Shown here one piece after another: positions 20,067-21,452 of a stretch of DNA of 64,000 bases. Each line of letters begins with the position of its first letter. The first letter of the stretch is position 1. The translations under genes were made by a program, and so were the position numbers. The notes under the pieces are model-generated. The model saw nothing but the letters and a program-made list of their open reading frames with translations, was not told where the DNA came from and made no database searches. The stretch is taken from contig OY970229.1 of the NCBI GenBank assembly GCA_963714085.1, positions 416,001 to 480,000 of the forward strand. The letters are read 5' to 3'. Source of the DNA: an uncultured Candidatus Micrarchaeota archaeon (GTDB lineage Archaea; Micrarchaeota; Micrarchaeia; Anstonellales; Bilamarchaeaceae).

Positions 20067-20956
20067 AGACGCTCAAGTTGCTCGCCACGCAGATCGGCGG
20101 CGAGATCGGAGGGGACGTGAAGGAGGCGTTCGCGGACATATCCTATTTCGTCCGCAGGGGGCACAGTGTGTGCGGCGATTCGGCGTTCGTGCACGTGGAC
20201 GACTCGAAGGTGGTCGCGGCGGTGCTGGACGGCGTGAGCGGCGAGGAGGGCGCGGACCACGCGTCTTCGGTGGCCGCTGTGGCGATCGTGAACTATCTCA
20301 GGGGCATTGCGGCGCCGGACAAGGACGATATACAGGACGCGTTCGTGAAAGCGCACATCAACCTCTCCTTCGGGCTCACCACCGTGGTGCTTGCCGTGAT
20401 AATGAAGGATGGGAGGTTCCTGTGCGGCTCGGTGGGCGACTCGATGGCCTATTCGCTCGACACGAAGGGGACCGTGAGGCTGGAGCTGCCGGGGGCCAGG
20501 GTGGTCGGGCCGGGCACGCCGATCCTGCGCTTCCTGATGTACAGGAACGTGGTGCCTGCGGCGCTCGGCATGCAGGGCGGCATGGAGATACTCTTCAAGC
20601 AGGGGGAGCTGAGGCAGGGGGATTCCATCCTGCTAATGAGCGACGGCGTGACGGACAACCTCACCATCTACGTGGAGGATGGCGTGGTGAAGGACTGCGG
20701 CGGCGCCAAGGACCTCGCCCTGATGGTGGAGGGTGCGAAGGACACGAGGTCCGTCGTGAGGCGCATACGGGACGAGGTGGTGAAGAGGATGGAGGAGAGG
20801 TACGACATCCGGGACCCGGACCGTGTGCTGGTCGCCAAAAAGGACGACGTGGCGCTGATAGGCATCAGGTACACCGGAACCGGCATCGTCGGAGCGGGGG
20901 TTGGACGCCCGTCTAAGATTAGACGCGCGTCAAAGAAAAAAAGGAAAGGTTTATAA
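20063..20956 (+). CDS. PP2C-family Ser/Thr protein phosphatase
   Basis: CGDS, VLDGVSG, SVGDS, LMSDGVTDN, DD motifs; ATGA overlap with trm1 stop. Confidence 0.88.
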   Translation: MKTLKLLATQIGGEIGGDVKEAFADISYFVRRGHSVCGDSAFVHVDDSKVVAAVLDGVSGEEGADHASSVAAVAIVNYLRGIAAPDKDDIQDAFVKAHINLSFGLTTVVLAVIMKDGRFLCGSVGDSMAYSLDTKGTVRLELPGARVVGPGTPILRFLMYRNVVPAALGMQGGMEILFKQGELRQGDSILLMSDGVTDNLTIYVEDGVVKDCGGAKDLALMVEGAKDTRSVVRRIRDEVVKRMEERYDIRDPDRVLVAKKDDVALIGIRYTGTGIVGAGVGRPSKIRRASKKKRKGL

Positions 20957-20978
20957 ACGAAAAAATCGCAACTTCTAT

Positions 20979-21285
20979 GTCGGTGCGGGCTGAATGGCCC
21001 TACGGGGCTTAAGAAAACCGCGCCGGCCGTATGACCGTTTTTCGCGGTCACATGAAAAAACTGATGCCGGGCCGGTGGATAACCGGGCGATGCTGGCTTA
21101 GACCCTTTTATCGGGAAAACGCCAAATCGTCTGCTGGAATGGAATTATCCGTCCAAAACCGCTCCGGCTACAGGGAAAAACAAGGCCGAACCGGTGGATA
21201 GTGGGCGAGGCTGGCTTAGACCCTTTTATCGGGAAAACGCCAAGCGTCTGCTGGAATGGAATTATCCGTCCAAAACCGGTTCGGG
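20979..21285 (+). ncRNA. Candidate structured non-coding RNA (hairpin domain plus two tandem structured units)
   Basis: TTTATAAA at 20950..20957; 10-bp stem with G-U pairs enclosing a cUACGg hairpin; two repeats with differing but paired closing stems. Confidence 0.5.
21066..21285 (+). repeat. Tandem direct repeat of about 100 bp (21066..21168 and 21185..21285)
   Basis: Two identical 34-nt blocks shared: gctggcttagacccttttatcgggaaaacgccaa and cgtctgctggaatggaattatccgtccaaaaccg. Confidence 0.92.
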
Positions 21286-21452
21286 GATGATTCGAATTCT
21301 GATGGTTTGCATAGGCTTACTGAATGGCTTATCCTGCGATTTTTCCGGAGTAGCGACACACTAAAACACCGAATGCCATGGAAAATGCGCTGGAAACAAG
21401 CGGGAAGCAGCCGTATCTACGGTATTTAAACATTTCCGATGAAAGCACTCTT

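Follow-up and report, generated by a model that had tools for sequence, protein, structure and literature searches.

What is encoded by the segment flanked by genes for a PP2C-like and a CBS-domain protein in a 1.57-Mb single-contig archaeal genome (here called G000), and what does its product do? The locus belongs to a window of 64,000 nucleotides, the whole stretch of DNA that was analyzed, and the original prediction placed here two tandem units under selection for RNA structure, such as a novel ncRNA, a tandem aptamer or a guide RNA. We are highly confident that the locus is a real, uncatalogued structured ncRNA gene. As for its product, the best explanation, put forward tentatively, is that a stand-alone RNA gene gives a transcript which EndA cuts at two bulge-helix-bulge (BHB) motifs, and that two circles of about 75 nt, closed by RtcB, then serve as protein decoys. 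Four steps would make up this path. A dimeric factor, presumed here together with its binding and its activating effect, would bind a tandem palindrome beside the BRE and switch the gene on; the RNA folds into two cassettes, as covariation shows; EndA would cut each BHB, the motif and the enzymes being present, and the inner piece would be circularized; finally, the circle may bind an RNA-binding protein through its internal-loop arm, with a dose that matters, as repeated duplication suggests.

All parts of the gene lie on the + strand, and every coordinate in the original prediction matches the sequence. At the upstream end are two copies of a 16-bp palindrome with the consensus TTAGAC-N4-GTCTAA, a putative transcription-factor box, the distal one (20901..20916) overlapping the 3′ end of the PP2C-like ORF, which ends at 20956, and the proximal one (20919..20934) ending 15 nt before the TATA box in what appears to be an activator-like position. 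This tandem palindrome (20901-20934) had been overlooked, and so had the BHB nature of the AAA-bulged closing stems. A purine-rich, BRE-like stretch and the TATA box follow (20935..20957; purine run 20935-20949, TATA box TTTATAAA at 20950-20957), their sequence being conserved in the relative G001, the metagenome contig L021 and the single-unit homologues, and transcription is predicted to start near 20977-20979. In genus g1, the final codons of the PP2C-like ORF double as operator, BRE and TATA box, with the stop codon falling within the TATA box. The transcript would begin with hairpin 1 (20979..21027), capped by a cUACGg tetraloop and compensated in G001 and L021; its stem of 10 bp (20979-20988/21018-21027) contains two U-G pairs and closes around GGCCC-UACG-GGGCU, just as first described. 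Hairpin 2 (21028..21054) carries a U-rich loop and shows paired changes in G001. AAAACCG indeed ends all three large hairpins, and hairpin 1 has this AAA-ACCG 3′ strand in common with the cassettes but forms no clean BHB. A T-tract at 21340..21345, found at the same place in L021, may serve as a terminator. Farther on, the CBS gene has a separate TATA at about 21424 and is probably outside the system.

The two cassettes make up the rest. Their closing stems, 21066-21076/21158-21168 (one wobble, one mismatch) and 21186-21195/21275-21284 (perfect), and their two identical 34-nt blocks (21092-21125 = 21210-21243; 21128-21161 = 21245-21278) are present as originally reported. Each closing stem is a BHB within the hBHBh′ arrangement, the motif recognized by archaeal splicing endonucleases as described in the available part of PMC7714728. 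Cassette 1 (21066..21168) has an outer stem and a relaxed BHB, closing a junction that bears a long arm and a short hairpin; the central helix is 21076-21079/21152-21155, the 5′ bulge has 4 nt, the 3′ bulge has 3 nt (21156-21158), and the predicted excised piece is about 21083-21157 (75 nt). Cassette 2 (21186..21284) forms a strict hBHBh′ with an outer helix of 9 bp and an inner helix of 4 bp, a central UGGA/UCCA (21195-21198/21269-21272) and bulges at 21199-21201 and 21273-21275, each 3′ of the central helix, and its predicted excised piece is 21201-21274 (74 nt), or 72 nt in a register shifted by one. The conserved distal arm of cassette 1 (21095..21123; GGC / UUAGA / CCC-loop-GGG / AAAAC / GCC), which may be a protein-binding site, recurs identically in cassette 2 (21213..21241).

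Selection on RNA structure is supported by covariation, by a conserved promoter and by conservation independent of synteny. The + strand folds with z = -3.66, a value equalled by 0 of 100 shuffles, and the - strand with z = -3.12. In an alignment of ten units, pairing holds for 93.4% of cells, and two-sided changes are seen at 17 of 29 pairs, a count that overstates independence as six of the ten rows are close kin; shuffles pair 82.2% and slid alignments 27-49%, and none of 500 shuffles reaches the observed value. That no known family could be assigned holds for Rfam 15, where no covariance model matched the G000 window at gathering score or E < 2.7, and a search of the window together with 20 related loci returned tRNAs and chance matches alone.

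Homologues were found by several routes. BLAST against 60 relatives gave one syntenic two-unit locus (G001), and a pattern scan gave a further one in L021. A covariance model built from four units (R1) matched six of the 99 family genomes including G000, and a refined model (R2) nine, of which G027 was accepted, being syntenic with the same promoter, while two weak matches, one within an ORF of G100 and one in G071, were discarded. Unit-type RNA is accordingly counted in 7/99 family genomes plus L021; in G002 the promoter is present at a contig end. No unit was matched outside the family among 151 genomes of the order, and the first GTDB pattern scan gave 0 matches. Five genomes (G003, G036, G025, G006, G027) carry a single unit that begins about 22-30 nt past the TATA box, G027 having two additional 5′ hairpins, and in all five the neighboring gene is convergent. 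The arm pattern GGY-YUWKR-CC is present in all 11 units, and the RNA keeps its own promoter in unrelated contexts, namely PP2C/CBS (g1), presenilin-like/Trm5-like (g2, g4) and VIT1 or Na/Ca exchanger (g19). In G001, a perfect direct duplication of about 110 nt lies just downstream of the RNA (L004:1274-1496), possibly an assembly artefact.

The palindromic box is nearly private to such genes. In G000, the two copies before the TATA box are the sole sites in the genome with at most one mismatch. Of 401 genomes of the class, 20 contain the tandem form, each a single time and all within one family, against 0 for the reversed control; each of the 17 additional tandem-box loci inspected has structured non-coding sequence beyond its TATA box. 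The single-site pattern is found in 50/99 family genomes, with scattered matches in the control; by genus, it is in 35/40 of g19 (Bilamarchaeum) and in 0/8, 0/8 and 0/7 of three others. Spacing from the proximal box to the TATA box is 15 nt in 40 of 43 sites, counted over 42 chosen loci with L144, L145, L147, L150 and L155 (of 14 regions in one set) left out. The activator TFB-RF1 binds directly upstream of the BRE according to the part of PMC5937170 available, and as the box takes the same position, we infer activation by a box-binding factor. The TFB-RF1 motif given there, TCTG-N5-CAGA, differs from the G000 box, and the small wHTH of G000 that looks most similar does not co-occur with the box in the 99 genomes. 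About 35 HTH candidates were collected in G000 and three were compared with the box across the 99 genomes, all of which were rejected: a membrane-anchored ArsR is present in 71/99, including operator-free genera, while an HFX_2341/CARF-like wHTH (15/99) and an 89-aa wHTH (23/99) do not track the operator. G000 also encodes about 14 paralogous proteins of ~320-340 aa with an N-terminal Lrp/AsnC-like HTH, an expansion unusual for a 1.6-Mb genome. Regarding a wider regulon, no common gene emerged among 20 single sites fetched from relatives. The third-best operator match in G000 (G000:C1:64032-64047) abuts the TATA box of a gene named by eye, from its N-terminus, as phosphoenolpyruvate-synthase-like; an operator at such a gene is absent among the 20 single sites.

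Behind the same box, genus g19 carries a second type of RNA; the operator also offers a handle to find highly diverged ncRNAs that covariance models miss. Its conserved arm reads GGRC / 5-nt loop / CCC-loop-GGG / 3-nt loop / GYCC. A model of this RNA (R3) matches 33/99 genomes at E < 1e-4, namely 32 in g19 plus G024, many of these matches being training sequences, and a GTDB-wide scan for the core pattern gave 27 matches, of which 23 are archaeal records; the other four, GC-rich bacteria without the operator, were rejected. The g19 RNA and the unit have a common topology of closing helix, three-way junction, long arm and short arm. Neither model detects the other type, R3 missing the units and R2 the g19 RNAs, so BHB statistics from g19 transfer to the units solely through the shared promoter and topology. 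Homology of the two is no more than plausible.

How constant is the BHB motif? Of the 11 units, three have a strict form with 3/3 bulges and an inner helix (unit 2 of G000, G003, G027), five have a 4-nt 5′ bulge as in unit 1 of G000, and G025 has 3/3 bulges without inner pairs; the motif is weak in G036 and missing in G006. The central helix varies in sequence (UGGA/UCCA, UGAA/UUCA, GGAC/GUCC, AGAC/GUCU) while its length is constant. Among 26 RNAs from g19 and G024, a strict 3-4-3 BHB occurs in 13 at equal stringency (13 pairs), a test that was substituted after a first geometry test with loose thresholds had been seen to give no discrimination. Other bulge pairs at central length 4 reach at most 4/26 and the mirror 3-4-3 gives 0/26; central lengths 3 and 5 give 12/26 and 10/26, probably through slippage of G-runs, and for one mirror geometry the count is 8. 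With an outer helix of at least 3, the BHB is found in 14/26 against 0-3 in 40 shuffle sets. A held-out set of 12 regions yielded 10 promoters, one a duplicate, of which 4/10 show a strict BHB, a count tied by a mirror 4-4-4 reading (4/10); in addition, G088 has a BHB with one mismatch and G098 a short inner helix. Three of nine new g19 cases (G061, G082, G094) have no BHB, which argues that circularization is not obligatory. In G000, the motif is not part of the minimum-energy fold, the energy penalty for imposing the central helix being +2.8 kcal/mol in unit 1 and +1.1 kcal/mol in unit 2, and that for a complete hBHBh′ about +10 and +6 kcal/mol; in several g19 RNAs it lies within the minimum-energy fold. 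The predicted circles of G000, when folded as circles, retain the long arm. One larger product could instead arise if unit 1, through its 5′ strand, paired with the 3′ strand of unit 2, a possibility recognized by eye. For the g19-type RNAs of G085 and G024, pieces of 156 and 178 nt are predicted.

The enzymes for such a reaction are encoded in G000. Its EndA of 396 aa, encoded at about G000:C1:1052119-1053306 on the minus strand, has as best PDB match 4FZ2 (E 1e-134), which we take to be the ARMAN-2 epsilon2 enzyme. RtcB is also encoded; its match (G000:C1:1304382-1306085) falls into two parts in a single open frame, which points to an intein or an insertion. Several tRNA introns of G000 show 3/3 BHBs with merely 1-3 inner pairs, as judged from automated picks of which some are unreliable, and micrarchaeal epsilon2 endonucleases are described as accommodating non-canonical bulges in the available part of PMC12397907. 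On balance, we consider excision by EndA followed by circularization in G000 to be somewhat probable. A test of the prediction would be cheap, since micrarchaeal EndA has been characterized as a recombinant protein and the cut sites are specified at nucleotide level. Elsewhere in the genome, the 23S rRNA gene (G000:C1:227300-228200, minus strand) has apparent short insertions, probably introns, and a tandem repeat of ~33 nt lies downstream of it near 226750-226900.

Sequence identity within the tandem loci roughly follows the predicted cut. Inner pieces of the same locus are identical at 68/71, 69/70 and 65/70 positions in the three tandem loci, compared with 59-62 of 70-71 between loci, whereas the 5′ outer strands follow orthology (7/7 for G000 against L021, 5/7 within). 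The tract that is kept identical therefore roughly matches the predicted circle, and ordinary gene conversion could be an alternative cause of this identity. Copy number has also risen independently in several lineages, by duplication of the whole cassette in g1, of the arm alone in G093/L100 and G076, and of the whole gene in G073, G076 and G080; the G073 loci (L098/L099) retain little but the long arm. A regulated RNA with a conserved internal-loop arm and a repeated increase in valency is best read as a decoy that titrates a protein, a function that we propose tentatively and by analogy. A bolder version, in our view rather doubtful, is that one family of Micrarchaeota has a class of genes under transcription-factor control that yield nothing but a small circular RNA, with the tRNA splicing machinery borrowed to make it; the two cassettes, whose copies stay identical between the splice sites, would then be a circle factory for an inducible, nuclease-resistant protein decoy.

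Other identities for the product were also screened. A permuted tRNA was rejected, as ARAGORN in circular mode with a relaxed score found none in either G000 circle, two of nine sequences giving inconsistent low-score calls. A fragment of rRNA or another stable RNA was likewise rejected, since no rotation resembled SRP, RNase P, 5S, 16S or 23S RNA, and so was rolling-circle coding, as circle lengths are not consistently multiples of 3.

Among the rival explanations, the least unlikely is a linear trans-acting RNA with two protein-binding domains, in which the BHB-like geometry stays uncut as a relic or a flexible hinge. Such an RNA would suit a motif that is not the predicted ground state in G000 and that is absent from G006, G061, G082 and G094, as well as the survival of the long arm alone in G073, but we hold it to be unlikely, given that bulges of 3 nt in the EndA orientation, variable as they are in sequence, show specific enrichment, that G098 retains a BHB (read by eye) around a different interior, and that homogenization stops near the BHB. 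Still less likely is that the circle is excised as tentatively proposed and then works as a structural or allosteric RNP subunit, in the manner of a circular SRP RNA or a Y RNA. Vertical, mostly single-copy conservation across several genera speaks for it, and so does the precedent of the Thermoproteus SRP RNA as reported in the available part of PMC4731332; against it, a dedicated operator and variable copy number suit a regulated RNA better. The RNA is no stand-in for a missing RNase P, SRP or 5S RNA, all three of whose genes are present elsewhere in G000, and a Y RNA was rejected since no TROVE/Ro60 domain was found in this genome, 88% complete, and Rfam gave no match. Were the BHB itself the function, the RNA could be an inducible competitor substrate that ties up EndA and RtcB and slows tRNA and rRNA maturation, as would befit a genome relying on EndA for many tRNA introns and a motif common to both RNA types and to the divergent interior of G098. 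We consider this improbable, however: sequence conservation centers on the distal arm, which G093 and G076 have duplicated, and G073 has kept, without a BHB.

Base pairing with a target, as a guide or antisense RNA, seems to us a shade more improbable again. Internal and U-rich loops offer possible pairing sites for a target, but the loop sequences vary freely among homologues, and the guide RNA of the original prediction is not supported: the longest perfect complements to the 16S, 23S and 5S rRNAs of G000 are 7-9 nt, within the range of shuffles, no C/D or ACA boxes are conserved among the units, and the variable loop is identical in both G000 units. The least probable reading, and one largely refuted, is a cis-acting tandem riboswitch or CBS leader, or else a DNA repeat of MITE/REP type. 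Although the RNA lies upstream of the same-strand CBS gene in the three tandem loci, that gene has a TATA box of its own, and the five single-unit homologues (G003, G036, G025, G006, G027) end, with a T-rich tract or the closing stem, against a convergent gene, so the tandem aptamer first envisaged falls away as a cis-acting riboswitch. A dispersed repeat, named in advance as a finding that would overturn an RNA reading, is contradicted by the single copy of the locus in the 1.57-Mb genome; three pattern scans of viral contigs and a phage BLAST gave no match, and a plasmid BLAST one 35-nt match at chance level (E 0.08).

The circular decoy that we tentatively prefer has parallels among known systems. 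Bacteria possess protein-titrating sRNAs that are linear, carry GGA or CA repeats and have a dedicated activator, such as CsrB/RsmY/RsmZ with UvrY/GacA and CrcZ with CbrB. The G000 RNA resembles them in an operator nearly exclusive to ncRNA genes and in a candidate binding module multiplied by duplication, but it is archaeal, predicted to be circular and without Rfam match. Bacterial Y RNAs, which act with Rsr, are about 100 nt long with paired ends, standalone and regulated; the G000 RNA shares these traits, but no TROVE protein was found in its genome. The position of the palindrome immediately upstream of the BRE and TATA box is as in activation by TFB-RF1 (PMC5937170, available part).

In the portions available of the cited work, EndA-made circles stem from introns of tRNA, from pre-rRNA, from a single permuted SRP RNA and from a single mRNA leader (PMC4731332; PMC7714728; PMC12558985). 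A functional circular SRP RNA arises in Thermoproteus tenax through cleavage by the tRNA splicing endonuclease and subsequent ligation, and it resembles the present case as a stand-alone gene that is neither tRNA nor rRNA, although here cutting and ligation are predicted; that circle is a permuted universal RNA, whereas the G000 RNA has no SRP similarity, coexists with an SRP RNA elsewhere and, unlike its counterpart, is a single transcript with two cassettes behind an operator (PMC4731332, as far as its available part shows). Archaeal BHB introns include a tRNA-Trp intron doubling as C/D guide, a 47-nt intron in the 5′ UTR of HVO_1309 and pre-rRNA circles (PMC7714728; PMC12558985, both in their available parts). 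The likeness lies in the hBHBh′ boundary and, by prediction here, in EndA cleavage and circularization of the inner piece; according to the same portions these introns sit in a functional host (tRNA, rRNA or mRNA), whereas the flanks in G000 are a mere stem, with conservation inside and no C/D boxes. Circular omega-RNAs are described without a BHB in the available part of PMC12558985. Our literature search, whose coverage lay outside subscription journals and supplements, found no account of the RNA or its operator. If our reading is true, the role of EndA would extend to making regulatory circular RNAs from a regulated stand-alone gene of BHB cassettes, and the locus would represent a rare transcription-factor-to-ncRNA circuit in a DPANN lineage.

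Several further observations concern the g19 loci. In G070, G071 and G090, all of g19, a single operator and TATA box stand before a second conserved hairpin of ~60 nt (L060, about 200-265, + strand; L062 and L067, minus strand from the box), which in G071 lies beyond the 3′ end of a tfb gene; this hairpin holds GUCCUCAG, complementary to CUGAGGRC of the g19 RNA arm. At L040, L050, L053 and L086, the g19 RNAs run on, 3′ of the BHB domain, into a conserved domain of ~200 nt with its own closing stem. L154 (G098:C12) has a tandem operator, a TATA box and a BHB around an interior that matches neither model, possibly a third RNA type. Lastly, a tRNA-Lys(UUU) gene lies near the g19 locus (L043, L044, L047, L055), intronless in one genome and interrupted elsewhere by introns of roughly 52, 57 and 125 nt.
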